The notes beneath the pieces are model-generated. The model searched no databases. It saw nothing but the letters and a program-made list of their open reading frames with translations, and was not told the origin of the DNA. A stretch of DNA of 64,000 nt from an uncultured delta proteobacterium (lineage in GTDB: Bacteria; Desulfobacterota; Syntrophia; Syntrophales; Smithellaceae), in contig CAWKNI010000002.1 in assembly GCA_963851005.1 (NCBI GenBank), positions 6,156-70,155 on the forward strand, read 5' to 3'. Below, piece by piece: positions 3,941 through 39,633 of the stretch. A program made the translations under genes and the position numbers. Numbering within the stretch: the stretch's first letter is position 1; each line of letters opens with the position of its first letter.

Positions 3941-5881
3941 ATGAATAAATTATTATCACCAGCCAAAACCGAAGTTTTATTTATGGGCAATGAAGCCATC
4001 GCGCGCGGCGCGCTGGAGGCGGGCGTCAGTGTCGTTTCCGGCTATCCCGGCACACCTTCGTCGGAAGTAATAGAACGACTGTCGGAAGTCGCCGGCGAAA
4101 GAAACCTTTACGTGGAGTGGTCAACCAACGAAAAGGTGGCTCTGGAAGTCGCCGCTGCCGCGTCTTTTTCCGGTTTGCGTTCGATGTGCGTGATGAAACA
4201 AAACGGTGTCAATGTCGCCTCCGATTTTCTTCTGCATCTGTCTTCTTCAGGCACGCGCGGCGGAATAGTGTTGGTTGAGTGTGAAGACCCCGGCGCATTG
4301 TCGAGCGTCAACGAGGGGGAATCAAGGTATTTCGCGCGCATGCTGGAAGTTCCGCTTCTGGAGCCGGCCAATTTTCAGGAAGCCAAGGATTTGACCAAGT
4401 GGGCGTTTGAGTTGTCGGAAAAAATCAGAAATGTTGTCATGCTGCGCTCGGTCACGCGCATGTCGCACGCGAGCGGCAACGTCATTTGCGGCAAGCTGCC
4501 GCAGAAATTCCGCACAGCCCGCTTTGTTTCCGACGGTTCGATTATGGATCCGTTAAGAGGGCCGGTCGTCAGCACGCCGGTTGTTCTCAAACACAATCTT
4601 CAGCAGAAAAAATTACAGGAAGCTCAGGAACTTTTTGAAAAGAGTCCTTTTAATAGCTATTTTGGTCCCAAACGTCCGGAGCTTCTAATGATGACCAGCA
4701 GCGCCTGTTTTCTCTACAGCAGGGAAGCTGTCGATTTACTGGGACTGCAAAAGCGCGTCGGGATTTTGAAACTGAGTTGCACCTGGCCTTTGCCTGTGAA
4801 ACTTTTGAAAAAATATCTGCGCCTGACCGGTAAGATTATGGTCGTGGAAGAAGTGCTGCCATTCCTTGAAGAAAATATTAAAGTCGCCGCGATGGGAATG
4901 CTCAAAGATACCGGCATTAAAACTTTCTACGGGAAAATGGATAACACACTACCTTCAGCCGGTGAAATGAATCCCGAAATTGTTGTAGCGGCTCTGAGCA
5001 AAATAATGAAGGTCAAGCCAAAATTATTGCCGGCAAGTTATCTTCACGAAATTCAGAAAGTTGCGCCACTGGTTCCACCGCGGGAGCAGACATTCTGCCC
5101 CGGTTGTCCGCACCGCGCGTCTTTCTGGAATATCAACACAGCGCTGAAATTCGACGGTCGCGAAGGCATTGTCTGCGGCGATATCGGCTGCTATGCGATG
5201 GCGGCGCTTTGGCCGGCTATCGGTTTCCATACCGTGCGCACGCTTCATTCTATGGGATCGGGCACGGGGCTGGCCAGCGGCTTTGCCAAACTGGCGGGTT
5301 TCGGTCTGGATAAACCAGTCATGGCGGTTTGCGGCGATTCCACTTTTTATCACGCGGTTATTCCCGCGCTCGTCAACGCCCAGCATAACCGCGCGGATAT
5401 TACCTTCATCGTTCTGGATAACGCCGGAACGGCAATGACCGGATTTCAACCTCATCCCGGCATAAATGAGAGCGCCATTGGCGAACCTCTGCCAGCAGTT
5501 GACATTGCCGCAATCTGCCGCGCGATGGGAGCGAAAGTTGCTGTCAGCGATCCTTTCGATCTAGAAGAAACTAGCAAGATTCTCACATCTTTTATGGCCG
5601 AACGCGGCTCGCTGAAAGTTCTAATATTGAGGCAGATTTGTGCGCTCAGTCCCGAAAAGAAGGGAAAGAAAAAATATGAGATGAAAGTCAATGAAGAGCT
5701 ATGTCTGGGGGATAACTGCGGCTGCAACCGTTTGTGCACGCGCATTTTCCGCTGTCCGGCGTTGACGTGGGACAGGGCAAAAAAGAAAGCGGGTATTGAT
5801 GAAGTAATCTGTGCGGGCTGCGGCGTTTGTTATTCAATCTGTCCGCAAAAAGCGATAACGAGAACGGAGGCGGCGGGCTGA
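3941..5881 (+). CDS. iorA: Indolepyruvate:ferredoxin oxidoreductase, alpha subunit
   Basis: Start moved to ATG 3941 (MNKLLSPAKTEVLFMGNEAIARGALEAGV..GYPGTPSSE). TPP-binding GDIGCY / GDSTFYH motifs and a C-terminal CAGCGVCYSICP ferredoxin motif. The stop overlaps the iorB start (ATGA). Confidence 0.85.
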   Translation: MNKLLSPAKTEVLFMGNEAIARGALEAGVSVVSGYPGTPSSEVIERLSEVAGERNLYVEWSTNEKVALEVAAAASFSGLRSMCVMKQNGVNVASDFLLHLSSSGTRGGIVLVECEDPGALSSVNEGESRYFARMLEVPLLEPANFQEAKDLTKWAFELSEKIRNVVMLRSVTRMSHASGNVICGKLPQKFRTARFVSDGSIMDPLRGPVVSTPVVLKHNLQQKKLQEAQELFEKSPFNSYFGPKRPELLMMTSSACFLYSREAVDLLGLQKRVGILKLSCTWPLPVKLLKKYLRLTGKIMVVEEVLPFLEENIKVAAMGMLKDTGIKTFYGKMDNTLPSAGEMNPEIVVAALSKIMKVKPKLLPASYLHEIQKVAPLVPPREQTFCPGCPHRASFWNINTALKFDGREGIVCGDIGCYAMAALWPAIGFHTVRTLHSMGSGTGLASGFAKLAGFGLDKPVMAVCGDSTFYHAVIPALVNAQHNRADITFIVLDNAGTAMTGFQPHPGINESAIGEPLPAVDIAAICRAMGAKVAVSDPFDLEETSKILTSFMAERGSLKVLILRQICALSPEKKGKKKYEMKVNEELCLGDNCGCNRLCTRIFRCPALTWDRAKKKAGIDEVICAGCGVCYSICPQKAITRTEAAG

Positions 5882-6492
5882 TGAAGATGTCCTTAGTAAA
5901 AGAACCTACAAATATTATTATCACCGGTGTCGGCGGGCAGGGAAATGTCATGGCCTCGCGCGTGCTTGCCGGAATGTTGGTGAACGCGGGCTTTATCGTC
6001 ACCATCGGTGAAACCTTCGGCATGTCCCAGCGCGGCGGTTCGGTGATGAGTCATCTGCGCGTGTCGTCAACTTCCGTTTTAAGTCCGCAAATTCCGCAGG
6101 GCAGGGCGGATATTATCATCGCACTGGAACCGGTGGAAGCTTTGAGAGTTTTGGTCAAATACGGCAATCAGGATGTCGCTGTCCTGGCCAATTCACGCAT
6201 GGCTTATCCCATGGGAGTTATTACCGGCGAGTTTACCTATCCTTCTCTTGATGAAGTCAAAACAATGTTTATAAAACTTGCTGCAAAAAGCTGGCTGATT
6301 GACGCCACATCAGTAGCGGTTGATTTGGGAAATCCCGTTTTGAGCAATATCGTAATGATCGGAGCGCTGGCGGGCGCGTCATTGCTGCCGATTGACCGCC
6401 GCGCGTTTGAAAAAGAAATTATAAAAAACATGTCTACTGATAAACGTCAGATAAATTTGACTGCATTTGATGCCGGCATAAAAATGCTTTAG
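5881..6492 (+). CDS. iorB: Indolepyruvate:ferredoxin oxidoreductase, beta subunit
   Basis: MKMSLVKEPTNIIITGVGGQGNVMASRVL is typical of the gamma/IorB-type domain. Translationally coupled to iorA. Confidence 0.85.
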   Translation: MKMSLVKEPTNIIITGVGGQGNVMASRVLAGMLVNAGFIVTIGETFGMSQRGGSVMSHLRVSSTSVLSPQIPQGRADIIIALEPVEALRVLVKYGNQDVAVLANSRMAYPMGVITGEFTYPSLDEVKTMFIKLAAKSWLIDATSVAVDLGNPVLSNIVMIGALAGASLLPIDRRAFEKEIIKNMSTDKRQINLTAFDAGIKML

Positions 6493-6538
6493 CGCCCATT
6501 GTAACTTTCTTTGTAACCATGCAAACGGAGGGGATAAA

Positions 6539-6967
6539 ATGAAACAAATAATTTTAACATTGTGCGTCTTTTTTGCTTTCATAAACTTTACCTATGCTGG
6601 AGAAGAACTGTACGACTGCATTGACGCTAATGGTAATGCAATCGTCACGGATAGCCCTCAAGATGGAATGAAAAATTGTGTGTTAAAGGGCTCTAGTAGA
6701 GAACAATCACCAGAAGAACCGGCAAATGAAAAGGCTATAATGGAAAAAGATGATGCAGTTGCAAAAGCGAAAGAAACATCCAAGACAAGTTATAAACGCA
6801 TAAACAATTGTATTGATTGTTGCAACAACAAAATTCAAGTCTGCTATAATTATACTGCAGACAGCAGACTTTGTGTTGCAGAAGGTCAAAACTGTGCTGC
6901 TACTTGCAAATCAGAAGGCGCTTCTCTTTCATCATGGAGTGATTGTTGGTTTCAGTCTGACAAATAA
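6539..6967 (+). CDS. Secreted cysteine-rich protein with a DUF4124-like N-terminal motif
   Basis: 142-aa ORF with RBS GGAGGGG. Signal peptide MKQIILTLCVFFAFINFTYA; LYDCIDANGNAIVTDSP resembles DUF4124; the C-terminal third has 9 Cys. Confidence 0.5.
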   Translation: MKQIILTLCVFFAFINFTYAGEELYDCIDANGNAIVTDSPQDGMKNCVLKGSSREQSPEEPANEKAIMEKDDAVAKAKETSKTSYKRINNCIDCCNNKIQVCYNYTADSRLCVAEGQNCAATCKSEGASLSSWSDCWFQSDK

Positions 6968-7258
6968 TCAAATATAAATTTATTGTTTGGACATTGGATT
7001 TGAATACTTCACTGGTAATTTATATTGTTGCCGGCTCAAACAAATTGAGCCCCTGCAGGTAAACTCAACAAGCATTTTTTTCTGAAATAGACAAATCGTT
7101 ATCCTTGTCAGATTTGTTAACTTGCAATCCAAAATAAATAATACCGTGTTTTTTTCTTTTTTAAAAAAAGAAAATGTGCTAAATAGATACCCGCCCCATC
7201 TAAATAAGTAAAGTTCATATAAGTAACTGTCAGCAAATGAGTAAATGGAGAAATAATA

Positions 7259-7984
7259 ATGTTTCAACACAAGGCGATTCTGAATGTATTGTTATTTCTT
7301 TTTTCTTTAATATTATTTTTATCACTAACAGGTTGTGCGACTTTAGCCGTCGATCAGTTCATTTTACATCCTCGATCTGAGTTCGTTGATGAATTTACGC
7401 CAACAACTATTGAATTGGCAGGAATTTACTCCGGACGTGAAACAATTAATGGTCATAGTTATGCAATTATAACGGTCTTGAATGATTCCAATGATTGCAA
7501 GGAAAGACCTATCATTGAATTACTTTTGCCCATGGAAAAGAATTCTGATGCCAAATCAACGCTTCGTTTTGGCAAATCCCCAAAGGATCTGTTATCTGCA
7601 GGAGATATATATGCCGGCCAACCCGTGAGAATTGTCTTTTATTCTTCATCGAATGATAATGAAATAAACATTGATAAATCTATGACTTCAATGCTGTCCC
7701 GCCATAATTGGATTGGCTATGCTTCCGTGGTAATTGTCGGATATAAAAAAGGTAGTCGTAATATAGATAGACTTGCGTACAGAATTACTTCTGAAGCTAA
7801 TGATATTTTAGTGCGGCCATTTGATTGTAATGGGCTTTGTCATTCAACTTGGACATGTAAAAATAAGGAAGATAATGCCTCTGGAATAATTCTTATGCCT
7901 TTTGCTTTAGTATTCGACTTTATAACTGCCCCTGTTCAGGTGTGCCTCTCGGTAGTTAACCTTTTCATTCCTGCGGGGCCTTAA
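7259..7984 (+). CDS. Lipoprotein of unknown function
   Basis: 241-aa ORF. Signal peptide ending in the lipobox LTGC (FLSLTGCATL). No recognisable domain. Confidence 0.55.
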   Translation: MFQHKAILNVLLFLFSLILFLSLTGCATLAVDQFILHPRSEFVDEFTPTTIELAGIYSGRETINGHSYAIITVLNDSNDCKERPIIELLLPMEKNSDAKSTLRFGKSPKDLLSAGDIYAGQPVRIVFYSSSNDNEINIDKSMTSMLSRHNWIGYASVVIVGYKKGSRNIDRLAYRITSEANDILVRPFDCNGLCHSTWTCKNKEDNASGIILMPFALVFDFITAPVQVCLSVVNLFIPAGP

Positions 7985-8118
7985 ATCCTCTGTACAAATG
8001 TTGTTTTCACCTTAAGTGTCGTTGACAATTGAATAAATTTCTGTAAATATAAAAGCGTGGATGTCTGATAAATTATAAATTGATAGTTAGAAAATAATAT
8101 TTATGGGGAGGTATAGCT

Positions 8119-8898
8119 ATGCCTGAAGAAATAGATATTGATACATTTGATGATTCTAACGAACAAGCAGATATTAAAACTCCTGATGATTCTGAAAAAC
8201 GAGTGAACAACAATAAACCTAATAATTCTAAAAAACGAATGTTAAAAATCGGAATTTTTGCAATTCTTGTTTTTATAGTAATATTAATCGGTTTTGTTAT
8301 TGTGTTTTATGTAATGAATGAAACTTCTACTAATCCACCAAAACAAAAAGTGTCTAAATCAACTCCATCAGCAACAGCAAAACCGGCGAGAGTAGCATCG
8401 CCCCCACCAGTATCAACATCAAAACAAACTGTTCCGACTGCTGTCACCGAGAGTCCGGCTGCAAAAGAACAGTTGAATACTGATATTAAATTACAATCGA
8501 ATGATAACAATGGATACTTTAAAAGAGGCTATGCCTACTATGCACTCGGCAAGTATGAACTAGCCATCAAGGACTATAATGAGGCAATACGCCTGAAACC
8601 GGATGAAGTCGATGAATACAACAACAGAGGCGTTGCTTATGTTTATTTGAAACAATATCATAAAGCACAAGAGGACTTTGATGCAGCAATCAGATTGAAA
8701 CCTGATGATACCAGTGCTTATTATAATTACGCCTGTATGTTTGCTCTTCAAAAAGACTTCAAACAATCCTGCAAATGGTTGCAACAAGCAATGGAAAAAG
8801 GATATAAAGATTGGAAGCATATTAATGAAGATAAAGATTTTGACAATATAAGAAAATCATCATGTTTTATCGATATTCTCAAAAAACATGGGAAATGA
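8119..8898 (+). CDS. Membrane-anchored TPR-repeat protein
   Basis: 259-aa ORF with one TM helix (IGIFAILVFIVILIGFVIVFYV), a Pro/Ser/Thr-rich linker, then TPR units (AIKDYNEAIRLKPDEVDEYNNRGVAY.., AQEDFDAAIRLKPDD). Confidence 0.7.
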   Translation: MPEEIDIDTFDDSNEQADIKTPDDSEKRVNNNKPNNSKKRMLKIGIFAILVFIVILIGFVIVFYVMNETSTNPPKQKVSKSTPSATAKPARVASPPPVSTSKQTVPTAVTESPAAKEQLNTDIKLQSNDNNGYFKRGYAYYALGKYELAIKDYNEAIRLKPDEVDEYNNRGVAYVYLKQYHKAQEDFDAAIRLKPDDTSAYYNYACMFALQKDFKQSCKWLQQAMEKGYKDWKHINEDKDFDNIRKSSCFIDILKKHGK

Positions 8899-30317: not shown

Positions 30318-30457
30318 CCCCAAAGCAAGCTGCGGGGTATTAAACCCTCCGCTGCGCGGGATAATTCGACCTACAAGTTTCAGCACACTTTGTTTCTGAA
30401 ACTTGGGTCTCATTACAACTTACCAATTCCGCTATGTCGCAGATGACCTTTAGGTTA
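30318..30457. repeat. Composite structured repeat (hairpin family CCCC-AAGC-AAGCTGCGGGG, then shared block with covarying hairpin)
   Basis: Shared block CCCTCCGCTGCGCGGGATAATTCGAC (30345-30370). Hairpin CAAGTTTCAG (30374-30383) / CTGAAACTTG (30396-30405), then GGTCTCATTA. GACCTTTAGGTTA at 30445-30457. Compare 32867-32955. Confidence 0.75.
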
Positions 30458-33132: not shown

Positions 33133-33161
33133 TTGACATACAAAACCGCGTTTCATATACT
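33133..33161 (+). promoter_or_regulatory. Sigma70-like promoter interrupted at its -10 box by the IS1595-family insertion
   Basis: TTGACA (33133-33138), 17-nt spacer, TATACT (33156-33161). The target duplication ATACTTAA starts inside the -10. The upstream block GTGGCCAAGGTTCCCTTGACATACAAAACCG matches the promoter modules at 51609-51639 and 54440-54470. Confidence 0.55.
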
Positions 33162-33181
33162 TAAGGGAACTATATACAATG

Positions 33182-33688
33182 TTACCCTAGAAATCCGTTA
33201 TTAGCTTTGGTTTGAAATTCGGCCATATTCCAAACCGCTATCAAAGCTGATTTTTCATGGACTTGTGACTTTAGCCATTTCATTGCATTCTTTTTATAGC
33301 CTGAACCGTCCATAAGGACTATAGTAGGAACGGCTGTTTTGATTATATTAAACAGTAAGAAGGGATATTTTTCATCAACTGAACCCGGAACTTGTTGCCA
33401 TTTACATTCAATGATTAAATCATCAGGGAAGAGGTCGCGATTAACGATAAAAAAATCACATTTGCGTGTGGTTTCATAGATGGTTTGTCCGACTGGTAAT
33501 TGTTTAAGATATTGTTTCCCGCCAATAGCTTTTCTGTTTTCAAAAGCTATTGTTTTATGATTCCAAAACTCAACATAACCTTTTTTTTGAAGAATTTGCT
33601 CAATGAATTGTTCAAGTAGATTTCCTGTACTATTTGCCTTTTCTCCACTACTGATAATTTCTGATAATGAGTTCTGTTTCTTTGCCAC
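33182..33688 (-). CDS. Small PD-(D/E)XK nuclease, candidate type II restriction endonuclease
   Basis: 168-aa ORF with a GTG start preceded by AGGGAG. CDFFIVNRDLFPDDLIIECKWQQ gives the D...E-x-K core. Overlaps the methyltransferase gene end by 41 nt. Its stop codon lies inside TIR-L. Confidence 0.6.
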   Translation of the reverse strand: MAKKQNSLSEIISSGEKANSTGNLLEQFIEQILQKKGYVEFWNHKTIAFENRKAIGGKQYLKQLPVGQTIYETTRKCDFFIVNRDLFPDDLIIECKWQQVPGSVDEKYPFLLFNIIKTAVPTIVLMDGSGYKKNAMKWLKSQVHEKSALIAVWNMAEFQTKANNGFLG

Positions 33689-34532
33689 GTTGATCTCCCT
33701 TACAAGATAAAAAGCGTGATGCCTGAACTTGTTCTATATTAAATCCATCGTAAAGTTTCCTGACAAAGTCATTATCAGAATTTGAAATCATAAACAAGCA
33801 TCTTGCCTTGTCTAATTTATGACAAAAAGTGGCCAACGCTTCATGGTCTTTATCCCCAAATCTACTACTATCATATCCATCGAAGGTCTTATGATAAGGC
33901 GGGTCAAGGTAATAGAAATTTTTCTGTTCTATTACCACTTGAGAAAACACATGCTGCTTAATTTCAACGCCCTGTAAGGCTCTTGAAACTAACCGCAAAT
34001 TATCTTCGTCCAGTATTGCAGGGGAAGTATAGCTGCCGATAGGCACATTAAAGTCTCCGTTTTTGTTGACACGGTAAAGCCCATTATAACAAGTCTTGTT
34101 GAGATAAATAAGAAGCGCGGCAACCTTGGTGGAATCTTTTTCTTTTGACAAACGTTGTCGGGAAGTAAGATAATATTCCTTGGAATGTTTGGCCACATGA
34201 ATTTTCAGATTAGTAATTAAGCGGTCAACATCATCACGCACAGCGCGAAAGGATAGGATAAGATGAAAATTAACATCTGAAAGATATGCTTTTTGTGGTT
34301 TGATAAAAAAGAATAAAGCTGCTCCACCTAAGAAAGGCTCGTAGTAACTATTATATTCTTTTGGCATTCGTTCTGTTAGTTCTTGAAGGATAGAACGCTT
34401 GCCACCCGCCCACTTCAAGAAAGGGCGTGCCATGGGTTCCAATAATACAGGTTTATTTTCATCAGCGATACCCGAAAGAACTTCGGTAAACGAGAAGTTA
34501 AGCGGCTTATGGTTTTTTTGTGGCATTATCAT
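33648..34532 (-). CDS. D12-class (Dam-like) N6-adenine DNA methyltransferase
   Basis: 294-aa ORF with FLKWAGGKRSIL (SAM-binding region) and YYLDPPY (catalytic DPPY). Confidence 0.9.
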   Translation of the reverse strand: MIMPQKNHKPLNFSFTEVLSGIADENKPVLLEPMARPFLKWAGGKRSILQELTERMPKEYNSYYEPFLGGAALFFFIKPQKAYLSDVNFHLILSFRAVRDDVDRLITNLKIHVAKHSKEYYLTSRQRLSKEKDSTKVAALLIYLNKTCYNGLYRVNKNGDFNVPIGSYTSPAILDEDNLRLVSRALQGVEIKQHVFSQVVIEQKNFYYLDPPYHKTFDGYDSSRFGDKDHEALATFCHKLDKARCLFMISNSDNDFVRKLYDGFNIEQVQASRFLSCKGDQRGKETELIIRNYQ

Positions 34533-34715
34533 TTAAAAGCCTTTCAAAAGTCTTTGAAGTTTTAAGTTAATCTTCCCCGTTGACTCCATAATATCATAGG
34601 CGTGTTCAGCGAGTATTTTATCCTCAGCATTGTAAAGTTCAATTAAAGACTTGTGCGCCAAATCAACAGCTTGTTGCGCTGCTTCAAGTTTTTCTTTGTC
34701 TAATTGAGAAATCAT
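34533..34715 (-). CDS. Small helical protein of unknown function inside the IS (between transposase and methyltransferase)
   Basis: 60-aa ORF. Its TAA stop directly abuts the methyltransferase ATG. Predicted coiled-coil-like sequence EKLEAAQQAVDLAHKSLIELYN. Confidence 0.45.
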   Translation of the reverse strand: MISQLDKEKLEAAQQAVDLAHKSLIELYNAEDKILAEHAYDIMESTGKINLKLQRLLKGF

Positions 34716-34734
34716 ATTCGTACTCCCCCTTTAT

Positions 34735-35655
34735 TTATTGGATAAGAATTTTATAAGGTAAGTTACTTGAATTCGCGGCATTGTTTATTACATTAGGGAA
34801 AATGGTTTTGAATTTTTCATCCCGCGTATTAAACCTATAAGTAAATTCATCTACATATTGTTGAAGATGTTTGTTGCTCATTGAATGGTATATCCCAACA
34901 TAACCGCGTTTAAAAATTGCCCAAAAACTTTCAGCGCAATTTGAATGAATCCCGCCATGTCTTACATATTCGCCGCGTGAATGAGAAATTGTCTCATGGT
35001 CGTATAACTTCCCTATCCGGTCATAAGAAGGGAAATCATCCGTAAAAAGTTTAGAACCTATTTTGATATTGTCAATAATGCGACTTTCGATGGTTCGCAT
35101 TTTCACATTATCAACTACTTGTGCGCGAGCCTCTCCACCACGTTGAATCATTCCAAAAACCGCTGTTTTGCCTTTAGTGTTTCTTCCTTGTGTCCCGCCA
35201 ATTCTCTTTCTCGCATGTTTGTTTTTCTCTTTGCCGCCGACATAGGTTTCGTCAACTTCGATGGTTCCAAATAATTGGCCGTTATTTTGTTTCATAGCTT
35301 TGCGAATTCTATGATCCATGAACCATCCAGTCTTTTGAGTAACGCCTACTTGTTTTGCAAGCTGAACGGAAGAAATTCCTTTCCGGCAAGTGGTAAGCAG
35401 ATATATAGCGATGAACCATTTTTGTAAAGAGATTTTGCTCTCTCCAAATATCGTTCCGGTCTTAATAGTAAAATCTTTATGGCAACGCGAACAGCGATAA
35501 CGCTTACCGTCTTTGAAGCGGTAAATAGTGGTATTCCCACAATGAGGGCAATATTCGCCATTCTTGAAACGAATCTGTTCAAAGAATTTATGGCAGGTTT
35601 CTTCATCCTTAAATTGATTTATGAATTCTACTATTGATGCAAAGTTCGTGTCCAT
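34735..35655 (-). CDS. IS1595-family (ISXO2-like) DDE transposase
   Basis: 306-aa ORF. N-terminal zinc ribbon CPHCGNTTIYRF..YRCSRCHKDFT, then ISLQKWFIAIYL, VDETYVGGKEKN, FTDDFPSYD, HSNCAESFWAIFKRG..GIYH.MS.KHLQQYVDEFTYRFN. Confidence 0.92.
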   Translation of the reverse strand: MDTNFASIVEFINQFKDEETCHKFFEQIRFKNGEYCPHCGNTTIYRFKDGKRYRCSRCHKDFTIKTGTIFGESKISLQKWFIAIYLLTTCRKGISSVQLAKQVGVTQKTGWFMDHRIRKAMKQNNGQLFGTIEVDETYVGGKEKNKHARKRIGGTQGRNTKGKTAVFGMIQRGGEARAQVVDNVKMRTIESRIIDNIKIGSKLFTDDFPSYDRIGKLYDHETISHSRGEYVRHGGIHSNCAESFWAIFKRGYVGIYHSMSNKHLQQYVDEFTYRFNTRDEKFKTIFPNVINNAANSSNLPYKILIQ

Positions 35656-35680
35656 TGTGGTTTTCCCCTTTCTTGACTAT

Positions 35681-35709
35681 AGTATAATGGATCACATTAG
35701 GGTTGTCAA
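35681..35709 (-). promoter_or_regulatory. Sigma70-like promoter of the transposase/R-M operon
   Basis: Minus-strand read: TTGACA (35704-35709), 17-nt spacer, TATACT (35681-35686), about 25 nt upstream of the transposase ATG, with RBS AAAGGGGA. Confidence 0.5.
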
Positions 35710-35734
35710 GTATTATTTTCAATTATTTTTCTAT

Positions 35735-35763
35735 TTGACTTTTAAAAGATACAGAACTAATTT
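35735..35763 (+). promoter_or_regulatory. Outward-facing sigma70-like promoter near the right end of the IS
   Basis: TTGACT (35735-35740), 17-nt spacer, TAATTT (35758-35763). It precedes the 56-aa ORF and points out through TIR-R. Confidence 0.35.
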
Positions 35764-35793
35764 TAACCATCTAAAAAAACAAAGGAGAAAACT

Positions 35794-35964
35794 ATGCCTA
35801 AAGAAGAATGCAAACATGGAAAGAAAGCACCTGTAGAGGTTTTAGAGAATCTCCCCAATTCACAAGGCGGGACAGGGCGGCATAAATGCTGCATCTGTGC
35901 TTATCAAATCGGATTTAAAGAAGGATTTGAAGAAGGACAGGGGAAACGGAAAAAAGAAGGGTAA
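35794..35964 (+). CDS. Unlisted 56-aa ORF with Cys motif at the right end of the IS
   Basis: RBS AAAGGAGAAAA then ATG 35794. Translation is MPKEECKHGKKAPVEVLENLPNSQGGTGRHKCCICAYQIGFKEGFEEGQGKRKKEG. The stop TAA (35962-35964) lies inside TIR-R. Confidence 0.35.
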   Translation: MPKEECKHGKKAPVEVLENLPNSQGGTGRHKCCICAYQIGFKEGFEEGQGKRKKEG

Positions 35965-36081
35965 TAATGTATATAGTTCCCATACTTAATTATATAAAAA
36001 TGAATTTCTTATCAATTAATTCAATAATTAAATCAGTGAATGCTCTTACACATAAAAGGAAACCTTGCACCTGGAGTCTTT

Positions 36082-37750: not shown

Positions 37751-37768
37751 TAATTTTAACTTGGAATT

Positions 37769-37869
37769 CCCCGTTGCTTGCAGCGGGGATGGATAAAGAA
37801 AAATCATCTTTCCATATTATCGGCGAAACGAAGTTGAGCCGACGTGATACCCCGCAGCTTGCTGCGGGG
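37769..37869. repeat. Pair of CCCCG-N-GCTGCGGGG hairpins (same family as 30318-30337)
   Basis: CCCCGTTGCTTGCAGCGGGG (37769-37788) and CCCCGCAGCTTGCTGCGGGG (37850-37869). The reverse complement of the second matches CCCCAAAGCAAGCTGCGGGG (30318-30337) at 18/20. Confidence 0.7.
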
Positions 37870-37910
37870 AGAGTTCATTCAAACTTTTCTTTTTACATTG
37901 CATTAAGTGT

Positions 37911-39611
37911 TTATTTTTCCCTTGGATACGGCCAAGCCATGACACCGCCTTCCATGACCTCGACATTTTCCCATCCGTTACCTTCCAGCACCAGCGCCGC
38001 TTCATAGCCGCGCAGTGAAATCTTGCAGTAACAAATGATTTCTTTGTTCTTATCTTCTGGAATCTCCTTCAATCGCTTGCGCAACACACCAAGGGGAATA
38101 AGCATCTCGCCGATGCCAAGGCGCATCTGTTCAAATTCATCAGGTCCCCGAACGTCGATGAGGAACGGTTTTTCGTTGGCGAGAACTTTTTCCCGAACTT
38201 CACTGCAACTGATGCCCTTGAGTCTTCCTTTTATTTTGTTTTGCATTATGTGCGCTGTAGCGATGAAGTGATCTATGGCCAGAGAAAAAGGCGGTGCGTA
38301 AGGGAGATCTGCATTTATGAGATCTTCGACAGTCAGCTTGCCTTGAATTGCCATCGCCCACTGAGCTATTTGCTTGCTGACGTTGCCCGGTCCGATGCAT
38401 TGAGCACCCAATAACTTGCCAGTTTTTCGATCAGCGATAAGCTTGGTGACCAGGAGCTTACCTTCCATGTATCCGGGTTTGTCAGGACTGGCGTTTATTA
38501 CCGTGATGATGTCACTATGTCCCCATTTTTTTGTGGCTGTCTCGGAAAGTCCCGTTGATCCTGCGGCATAATCGAAAACCTTACAGATGCCTGTCTGAAT
38601 AGTTCCGGGAAATGTTACACAATTTTCCGAAGCGGCGTTTTCACCAGCCACACGTCCCTGAAGGTTGGCCAAATCTCCATATGGCGCCAGAACTTTTTTG
38701 CCGGTAATTCTGTTCACTGTTTCCACACAGTCGCCCACGGCATAGATGTCCGGATCGGAAGTCTGCATGTATTTGTTTACATTTATGCCACCCAATCTGC
38801 CGATTTTCAAACCAGTTTGTTTGGCCAGTTTTACATTAGGAGTAACACCAATTGCCACCACCGCCAGTTCACAGGCCAGTTCAGTGCCGTTTTGCAGTTT
38901 CACCGCCGTCAGTTTGCCGTTTTCACCTAGAAACTCTGCAACGCCGTTGTCTGTGATGACATTGGCTCCTTTGCTTTTGAGATGGTTTTCCACGAGCTTG
39001 GCTAGTTCCCAGTCCAGGAAAGTCAGTAGTTGAGGCAGAAGTTCAATCACTGTGATTTCGATGCCCGTAAGTTGAAGCGCTTCACAGGTTTCGATGCCTA
39101 TCAAACCGCCGCCGATAACGACAGCTTTTTTGATCTTCTTTTCATCTCGGACTTTGCGCAGGAAATCGGTGTCTTTCATGGATTTTAAGGTAGTAATCCC
39201 TTCGAGTTCTAGACCGGGAATAGGTGGCATCTGAGAAACAGAACCGGTGGCAATAACGAGTTTATCGTAAGTCAGTGAGCCAGTTTCGCCTGTCGCAATA
39301 TTCTTAAACGAAACGGAATGGTTTTTTCGGTCGATTGCTGTTACTTCCGTGTTTACTTTCGCGTCTATGTCTTTGGCGTTCAGATAGAATGTTGGAGTTC
39401 TCACAACGCCCGTGGGTGTGCACAAAAGCATATTGCGGTCATTGAAATATCCGCCAATGTAATAAGGATAACCGCATGACGCCATGGAGAGATCCGCATC
39501 TTTTTGCAGAATGACGACTTCAGCATTGTTGTCGATTCTTCTGGCTTTCGCCGCCGCCTTGGGTCCAGCAGCTGAGCCGCCGATCACTATAATTCTTTTT
39601 CTTTTTGTCAT
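37911..39611 (-). CDS. CoA-disulfide reductase-family flavoprotein fused to a rhodanese domain (NADH-dependent persulfide reductase-like)
   Basis: 566-aa ORF with FAD motif IIVIGGSAAGPKAA, single redox Cys in SMASCGYPYYIGG, NAD motif VVIGGGLIGIE, and a C-terminal rhodanese with active-site loop CYCKISLRG. Confidence 0.85.
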   Translation of the reverse strand: MTKRKRIIVIGGSAAGPKAAAKARRIDNNAEVVILQKDADLSMASCGYPYYIGGYFNDRNMLLCTPTGVVRTPTFYLNAKDIDAKVNTEVTAIDRKNHSVSFKNIATGETGSLTYDKLVIATGSVSQMPPIPGLELEGITTLKSMKDTDFLRKVRDEKKIKKAVVIGGGLIGIETCEALQLTGIEITVIELLPQLLTFLDWELAKLVENHLKSKGANVITDNGVAEFLGENGKLTAVKLQNGTELACELAVVAIGVTPNVKLAKQTGLKIGRLGGINVNKYMQTSDPDIYAVGDCVETVNRITGKKVLAPYGDLANLQGRVAGENAASENCVTFPGTIQTGICKVFDYAAGSTGLSETATKKWGHSDIITVINASPDKPGYMEGKLLVTKLIADRKTGKLLGAQCIGPGNVSKQIAQWAMAIQGKLTVEDLINADLPYAPPFSLAIDHFIATAHIMQNKIKGRLKGISCSEVREKVLANEKPFLIDVRGPDEFEQMRLGIGEMLIPLGVLRKRLKEIPEDKNKEIICYCKISLRGYEAALVLEGNGWENVEVMEGGVMAWPYPREK

Positions 39612-39633
39612 ACGCCCTCCTTATCGTTGTTTG

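Follow-up and report, generated by a model that had tools for sequence, protein, structure and literature searches.

A probable IS1595-family transporter insertion sequence with a predicted restriction-modification pair in a Smithellaceae genome

The IS1595 family is the one on which Siguier 2009 (cited in PMC3129680 and PMC7986276) based the definition of transporter insertion sequences (tIS), the insertion sequences (IS) that carry passenger genes within their ends. Two such IS1595-family tIS, tISCpe8 of Clostridium perfringens and MTnSag1 of Streptococcus agalactiae, have 25-bp ends and 8-bp repeats, and a circular intermediate has been reported for MTnSag1 (PMC5704250). Here we analyze a 64,000-nucleotide stretch of contig CAWKNI010000002.1 (hereafter the window) from an uncultured member of the Smithellaceae, in which positions 33165-35981 very probably constitute a 2817-bp tIS of the IS1595 family with restriction-modification (R-M) cargo. 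Compared by description, the window element resembles tISCpe8 and MTnSag1 in its IS1595-type DDE transposase, its ends of ∼25 bp, its 8-bp duplications and the placement of its passengers inside the ends, but the cargo of those two elements consists of lincomycin resistance and mobilisation functions, whereas the window element has a methylase and a nuclease, as a pair that is fused with, or coupled to, its transposase operon. It also agrees with the passenger-carrying IS1595 subgroups in having D, D, E plus K in the transposase and 8-bp duplications, and the cargo-bearing elements of its clade are 2-4.3 kb long.

Transposon-like R-M units have been described before. Furuta, Abe and Kobayashi (2010; PMC2853133) reported R-M genes lying within imperfect inverted repeats and flanked by 8-bp duplications, with an empty site in a relative. 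Their units include one from X. oryzae with 65-bp repeats and one from N. gonorrhoeae with 26-bp repeats and a degenerate transposase-like gene; a transposase was either absent or judged inactive, and the authors could not name the mover (PMC2853133). By comparison, the window element holds an intact transposase, and the same unit is found at many sites across phyla. Earlier reports of a methylase as cargo are cited in PMC2853133. In the searchable literature we found no report of this lineage of R-M-carrying IS1595 elements, which is widespread and apparently undescribed. The window element is real and recently mobile, while the passenger-carrying IS as such is already a known kind.

A second point of comparison is the control of transposition by adenine methylation. 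In IS10 and IS50, GATC sites within or next to the −10 region of the transposase promoter allow the Dam methylase of the host to repress transcription from it (PMC4265352). The window element likewise has a GATC in its transposase promoter (35690-35693), but IS10 and IS50 use the Dam of the host, whereas the window element encodes a methylase of its own that is predicted to be co-transcribed from the promoter it would modify.

Boundaries, empty site and recurrence of the element

The ends of the element are 23-bp terminal inverted repeats, GGGAACTATATACAATGTTACCC on the nuclease side, distal to the transposase (33165-33187), and GGGTAATAATGTATATAGTTCCC at the transposase-proximal end (35959-35981). 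They agree at 21 of 23 positions and are abutted on the outside by the two copies of the target-site duplication, the octamer ATACTTAA (33157-33164 and 35982-35989), a description that the original prediction had right to the base. The 23-bp pair is the longest inverted repeat of the region, and a degenerate pattern of the ends (up to 3 mismatches) matched these two places alone in the window, where 0 matches were expected from 100 shuffles. The original prediction had held that either of two patterns would refute the element, namely an inner repeat pair flanking only the transposase or a host repeat made up of the ends plus the octamer. An inverted-repeat search of the region found no pair around the transposase alone beyond AT-rich chance matches, and the ends occur nowhere else in the window. 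The G+C content of the element is ∼35-40%, as against ∼42-54% in the flanks. The cargo occupies the element up to its last base: the nuclease open reading frame (ORF) at one end and a 56-aa ORF at the other both close with GGG-TAA, which is the inner 6 nt (a Gly codon and a stop) of the adjacent terminal repeat.

The transposase (34735-35655, minus strand) is a full-length IS1595-family DDE protein of 306 aa with an N-terminal C4 zinc ribbon. It matched DDE_Tnp_IS1595 (PF12762) at 4e-44 (150.8 bits against a cutoff of 27), the NCBIfam IS1595 model NF033547 at 1.4e-60 (204.8 against a cutoff of 75) and Zn_ribbon_IS1595 (PF12760) at 2.8e-14. In an alignment with 24 homologues, no variation is seen at C36, C39, C55, C58, D135, E242 or K249, and conservation of D206 is 90% or more. 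K249 stands seven residues after the third catalytic residue (E, or N/H, in the family), where the family has K or R. Because the zinc-ribbon cysteines and D135, D206, E242 and K249 are all kept, the transposase looks intact. Its relatives in the database number 5979 at E ≤ 1e-20. The ends (GGGAAYTAT) and the DDE+K signature are compatible with the ISNwi1-type subgroup, which we take to be defined by GGnnnTTAT ends and a DDEK motif, so that membership there would be a provisional assignment.

Close and distant transposase relatives were fetched from public assemblies, and the loci were labelled with L-numbers. A look-up of the host gene on each side of the element led to a sister metagenome contig (L063, ERZ25039480:contig_89751) that matches the window at 99.8% identity over 3164 bp in one flank and at 99.5% over 1770 bp in the other. 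Its junction reads TTTCATATACTTAATTATATAAAA, with one ATACTTAA, which is verbatim the empty site that had been predicted, and the occupied site exceeds the empty one by exactly the element plus 8 bp. The occupied site is carried by three other contigs. The element thus inserted as one piece into an AT-rich intergenic site, duplicating 8 bp. Since occupied and empty sites exist in near-identical populations, the insertion is polymorphic among them, and the earlier claim of a recent insertion holds: the polymorphism separates populations more than 99.5% identical, and the duplication is perfect. An 8-bp duplication had also been put forward as fitting the IS1595 family, in agreement with the single octamer at the empty site and with perfect 8-bp duplications in ∼30 relatives.

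A unit of transposase, Dam-family methylase and PDDEXK_11 nuclease with the same 23-bp ends was found at more than 12 other sites, each with a different 8-bp duplication, in hosts that include Desulfobaccales, Verrucomicrobiota, Bdellovibrionales and Patescibacteria, as well as on viral contigs. Examples are L004 (CTTTGTAT), L006 (TATATTTA), L007 from Desulfobaccales (TAAGATAA), L010 from Bdellovibrionales (AAAAAATA), L012 from Verrucomicrobiae (CTAATTTG), L034 from Verrucomicrobiota (CTATTAAG), L054 (TTTGTTTT), L055 (AAAATTAT) and L081 (ATAATTTT), together with the deep-branching L071 on a viral contig (CTTATTTT). The identities of transposase, methylase and nuclease to the window copy fall in step (90/86/84, 86/82/81, 79/79/82, 65/61/60, 62/58/66 and 46/45/42%), which argues for long co-inheritance as a unit, and the occurrence of that unit at unrelated sites, each with its own duplication, indicates that the cargo moves with the transposase. 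A predicted defence or addiction module and its transposase moving as one 2.8-kb unit, as originally proposed, is therefore what both the recurrence and the empty site, which lacks the two alike, bear out; passenger genes inside the ends that move as a unit are also the mark of a tIS.

Other accounts of the locus fare less well. The notion that a plain IS landed beside a resident R-M operon, the outer 23-bp match being a coincidence or a host repeat, has practically no probability left: nothing was found in its favor, no inner repeat pair accompanies an end motif that occurs just twice in the window, and it is refuted by an empty site without transposase and cargo and by the same architecture at more than 12 sites. 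Presence/absence polymorphism by itself gives no direction, and the sister contig might have lost the element by precise excision while the window lineage made no gain. We consider this very improbable, because DDE elements of the IS1595 family are believed to leave the donor site by replication (PMC5704250), because precise loss of an element plus one 8-bp copy is rare, and because both the G+C content of the element (∼10 points under that of the flanks) and its relatives in unrelated phyla point to gain. The element could also be a fossil, or be mobile only via a related transposase acting in trans, with the window copy itself inactive. The window holds a single copy, exact-protein look-ups of the transposase and the nuclease returned the same insertion site only, and the ends differ at 2 of 23 positions; these facts would suit an inactive copy. 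Yet the transposase is full length and has lost none of the conserved zinc-ribbon or catalytic residues, IS normally have imperfect ends, and a perfectly duplicated insertion is polymorphic between populations more than 99.5% identical, so that we regard an inactive copy as unlikely. Under the preferred reading of a mobile tIS, the transposase would bind the 23-bp ends and move the element, probably via a circular copy-out/paste-in intermediate by analogy with MTnSag1.

The surroundings of the insertion show some further features. A host sigma-70-like promoter (TTGACA-17-TATACT, 33133-33161, plus strand) overlaps the insertion point. Where the site is empty, this promoter is directed at a 109/123-aa ORF at 36040/36082; after insertion it runs antisense into the nuclease gene, and the host ORF lies 2.8 kb away. 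A second polymorphism, 1.8 kb from the transposon, is a hairpin-rich 115-bp insertion (37760-37874, CCCCGTTGCTTGCAGCGGGG ... CCCCGCAGCTTGCTGCGGGG) that is missing from the otherwise 97-99% identical L063; it resembles a small element of the miniature inverted-repeat transposable element (MITE) or repetitive extragenic palindromic (REP) type, and a related hairpin lies at 30318-30337. A pyridine-nucleotide disulfide oxidoreductase/rhodanese gene is split in the window (37911-38903 and 38923-39612, minus strand; 330 and 229 aa) and is a single 566-aa gene in the empty-site contig; a frameshift, a pseudogene or an error of assembly could account for the split.

The methylase-nuclease pair

The methylase gene (33648-34532, minus strand) encodes a 294-aa Dam-family (D12, alpha-class) N6-adenine DNA methyltransferase with the predicted target GATC. 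The protein matched MethyltransfD12 (PF02086) at 4.3e-55, TIGR00571 (dam) at 7.3e-84 and the PADLOC model MTase_II at 1.7e-86, and its translation holds PFLGGAA and DPPY, in line with the AdoMet-binding and catalytic motifs expected of a Type II methyltransferase. Its best solved relative is M.DpnIIA (2dpm, 1e-52), as compared with 3e-28 for E. coli Dam. Downstream, overlapping the methylase gene by 41 nt, lies the gene of a predicted restriction endonuclease of the PD-(D/E)XK type (33182-33688, minus strand, 168 aa, GTG start). This nuclease matched PDDEXK_11 (PF20472) at 2.7e-39, and its residues D78, E94, C95 and K96 are invariant in 40 homologues, leaving the D...ExK motif intact next to the methylase, as in Type II systems. 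Its AF2 model is confident, with a predicted local distance difference test score (pLDDT) of 84.5; a Foldseek comparison of the model with the PDB gave weak matches, mostly to PD-(D/E)XK nucleases with restriction enzymes among them, the best at E 5.9e-3 and including NucS, BstEII, MspJI, EcoT38I and EcoRV. Several nuclease homologues carry precomputed Pfam matches to DpnII or XamI.

The pair is thus similar to the GATC systems of the DpnII/MboI type in that its methylase is nearest to M.DpnIIA and its nuclease gives a weak alignment to the DpnII family, over the catalytic half. Unlike DpnII, the nuclease belongs to PF20472 and has 168 aa, against 278 positions in the DpnII Pfam profile, and the methylase has a 34-aa N-terminal extension. 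These similarities lead us to infer that the cargo is a Type II R-M pair, most likely specific for GATC, which would act as a defence or addiction module travelling with the transposase.

Every close nuclease homologue whose context was checked lies inside the three-gene unit. Distant pairs of Dam and PDDEXK_11 genes without a transposase occur on an Alicyclobacillus plasmid and on viral contigs, which suggests that the pair is a self-standing module that was captured long ago by an IS1595 element. The plasmid collection yielded one distant methylase-nuclease pair, and the phage GenBank collection yielded no relative of the nuclease.

Predicted operon, promoter GATC and small open reading frames

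A sigma-70-like promoter, TTGACA-17-TATACT, lies on the minus strand at 35681-35709, 26 bp upstream of the transposase start, and matches at 11 of 12 positions. Its −35 hexamer is at 35704-35709, its −10 hexamer at 35681-35686, and the GATC mentioned above falls in the spacer. The promoter is nearly invariant among close copies, with the −35 CTTGACAACCC conserved across the clade. We found no terminator-like site between the operon genes. From this one promoter inside the transposase-proximal end, expression would run from the transposase through a 60-aa ORF and the methylase to the nuclease, with translational coupling suggested by ATGA overlaps in relatives, by an abutting stop and start here and by the 41-nt overlap of methylase and nuclease genes. 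Given the weak GTG start of the nuclease, the methylase should precede and exceed it. The original prediction had placed the R-M genes downstream of the transposase promoter; the conserved promoter, the overlapping or abutting ORFs and the lack of a terminator agree with this, and make co-transcription, as read from the layout, plausible. It had also listed four minus-strand genes, of which the coordinates and families stand, while a fifth ORF (35794-35964, plus strand) had been overlooked.

The GATC is part of a TGATC at a fixed place next to the −10 hexamer in all 17 pair-carrying elements of the main clade, among which the neighboring spacer bases vary, and it is present in 0 of the ∼42 sister elements that lack the pair and have a recognisable promoter. 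In a neighbor-joining tree of the transposases, the pair-carrying elements are paraphyletic: the pairless L008 nests among them, and a pairless Verrucomicrobial group is sister to a pair-carrying one. This nesting implies that the promoter GATC disappeared along with the pair on at least two occasions. The distribution of the site suggests control by self-methylation through the element's own methylase. With such feedback, a copy newly arrived and still unmethylated would be expressed differently from one already established and methylated.

The N-terminal extension of the methylase (MIMPQKNHKPLNFSFTEVLSGIADENKP..., 34431-34532, minus strand) lies outside the alignments with DpnM and with the methylase of the Alicyclobacillus plasmid, which start at residue 35-36. 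The first 34 residues fit the motif (G/S)RPxKxHxPIxxxFxxVLxxIA, which in sister elements without the R-M pair opens a homologous, free-standing, Lys-rich ORF of 40-62 aa downstream of the transposase gene. Nearly all elements of the clade encode this conserved, unannotated Lys-rich peptide, which follows the transposase gene at L008, L013, L014, L016, L018, L020, L022, L024-L028, L030, L032, L035, L044 and L051. Its codon entropy by position is 1.01/0.87/1.63, third positions varying most, and a profile search returned 250 related small proteins, none with a Pfam domain and one of them seen on 91 contigs. We rejected a mere decaying methylase stub as the sole explanation of the peptide, given the third-position variation and the 250 called proteins. 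The peptide may be an ancestral part of the element, or it may be a fragment kept from the methylase.

The 60-aa ORF (34533-34715, minus strand) has its own ribosome-binding site, and its stop (34533-34535) abuts the methylase start (34532), as had been noted from the start. It sits in a clean insertion of 207 bp, specific to its lineage, that separates the stop of the transposase gene from the start of the methylase gene; the closest relatives (L004, L006 and L007) do not have this insertion, and in them these two codons overlap. No family match was obtained for the 60-aa ORF in profile libraries that included PADLOC and PHROGs, and tblastn gave no match in any other fetched locus.

The overlooked ORF at 35794-35964 is divergent from the transposase gene, has a strong ribosome-binding site and encodes a 56-aa zinc-domain protein (C-x-H ... 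HKC-x2-C) that matched phrog_3941 at 9.7e-10. An exhaustive search gave 339 representatives, mostly proteins of ∼220-290 aa in which the domain stands twice in tandem at the N-terminus; among ten that were scanned, the nuclease domains NOV_C, HNH_2 and GmrSD_N were found in 4, 1 and 1, respectively. Among all fetched loci, homologues of the 56-aa protein occur only in elements with the R-M pair, on the upstream side of the transposase gene in main-clade elements and after the nuclease gene in L071, which ties the protein to the cargo. It is possibly a regulator, or a decoy against methylation-dependent restriction.

Several observations tell against a GATC-specific R-M pair under the element's own control. 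The function of every part is deduced from sequence, and the family of the nuclease, PF20472, has no characterised member. No PADLOC model covers the nuclease, which had no match in PHROGs either; a sequence search of the PDB found no match, and neither did Foldseek against the PDB at E ≤ 1e-3. Against the DpnII family (PF04556), the nuclease missed the threshold, with 16.4 bits where 23 are required (E 0.0057, profile positions 143-268), and it was not assigned to that family in view of this sub-threshold score. We compared how far GATC and other 4-bp palindromes are depleted in pair-carrying elements, in pairless elements and in the host window; the values for GATC are low throughout (0.60, 0.52 and 0.79, respectively), so that its depletion does not separate them and is uninformative on specificity. 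With regard to the promoter, the deep-branching L071 clade has the three-gene unit and no promoter GATC, and the association of GATC with the pair is partly non-independent phylogenetically. The original prediction had called the cargo a complete R-M operon; the methylase and nuclease genes, their families and their intact motifs support this, whereas completeness is itself a prediction for a nuclease of this family.

It is conceivable that the cargo is not an R-M system at all. The methylase would then serve the transposon as an epigenetic control of its promoter, like Dam on IS10 and IS50, and the PD-(D/E)XK protein would be a non-restriction nuclease, e.g., an accessory in transposition or repair. 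The nuclease without a characterised relative or a PADLOC model, the conserved GATC in the transposase promoter and the transposon-derived N-terminal peptide of the methylase would all suit such a role. We nonetheless think it improbable, given that methylase followed by nuclease with an overlap is the classic Type II order, that the D...ExK motif is invariant, that weak similarity to the DpnII and XamI endonuclease families is found repeatedly, and that distant pairs exist without any transposase (on the Alicyclobacillus plasmid and viral contigs). Promoter control could also coexist with the favored R-M cargo in a self-sensing transposon, in which a GATC methylase fused to a transposon-lineage peptide methylates the single operon promoter and the zinc-domain protein acts as regulator or decoy. 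On arrival in unmethylated DNA the operon would fire, so that transposition takes place and modification is established, and it would be reset once the host is methylated. We offer this tentatively and hold it to be possible but doubtful.

The wider clade and the meaning of the lineage

Beyond the R-M-carrying units, ∼30 further relatives share the end consensus GGGAAYTATATACAAnnTTACCC and have perfect, AT-rich 8-bp duplications; their lengths of 2.0-4.3 kb indicate that they are also cargo-carrying. The sister cargo found within the same ends comprises an N6_N4 methylase-Mrr nuclease fusion, a methylase-HNH fusion, an MT-A70 methylase, and NYN, Bro-N, P63C and DUF5343 proteins (L023 5917-7458; L043 6236-7399; L024 6564-7304; L044 4249-4821; L033 5912-6895; L038 5902-6879; L008 3976-4728). 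At the other extreme of divergence, the deep-branching unit lies on IMG/VR viral contigs (L071 2095-4763 and L072 2099-4484), is the one with 46/45/42% identity, has ends beginning with GGTAACTATATAC and carries, after the nuclease, an 84-aa two-repeat relative of the 56-aa protein.

Some elements share their 8-bp flank, or its reverse complement, in different Verrucomicrobial genomes (L012, L015, L016 and L022 with CTAATTTG; L021 and L032 with CAAATTAG), and L012 has another end motif straight after the right duplication. The shared flanks suggest a preferred target or insertion into a repeated host sequence. The closest relative, L004 (ENA ERZ27247363 k141_796378, element 5533-8285), has a transposase 90% identical to that of the window and is flanked by many small ORFs, a DUF932 protein and a DEAD-box helicase; its setting looks like a phage or an integrative element, which gives a hint of the way in which the transposon passes from host to host.

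The window element provides a clean natural case of a predicted R-M system and a transposase moving as one minimal autonomous unit, and fills a gap left by the transposon-like R-M units of Furuta et al., which had no functional transposase. Elements of the lineage are frequent in Patescibacteria, Verrucomicrobiota and Desulfobacterota and are also found on viral contigs, and the wide host spread of the lineage makes it a plausible route by which defence or addiction modules and adenine methylation patterns pass between distant phyla. Since the nuclease family is missing from PADLOC, model-based tools would probably score such loci as orphan methylases. Together, the promoter GATC and the fusion of peptide and methylase make this lineage a testable case of a transposon that may regulate itself by means of its own methylase.

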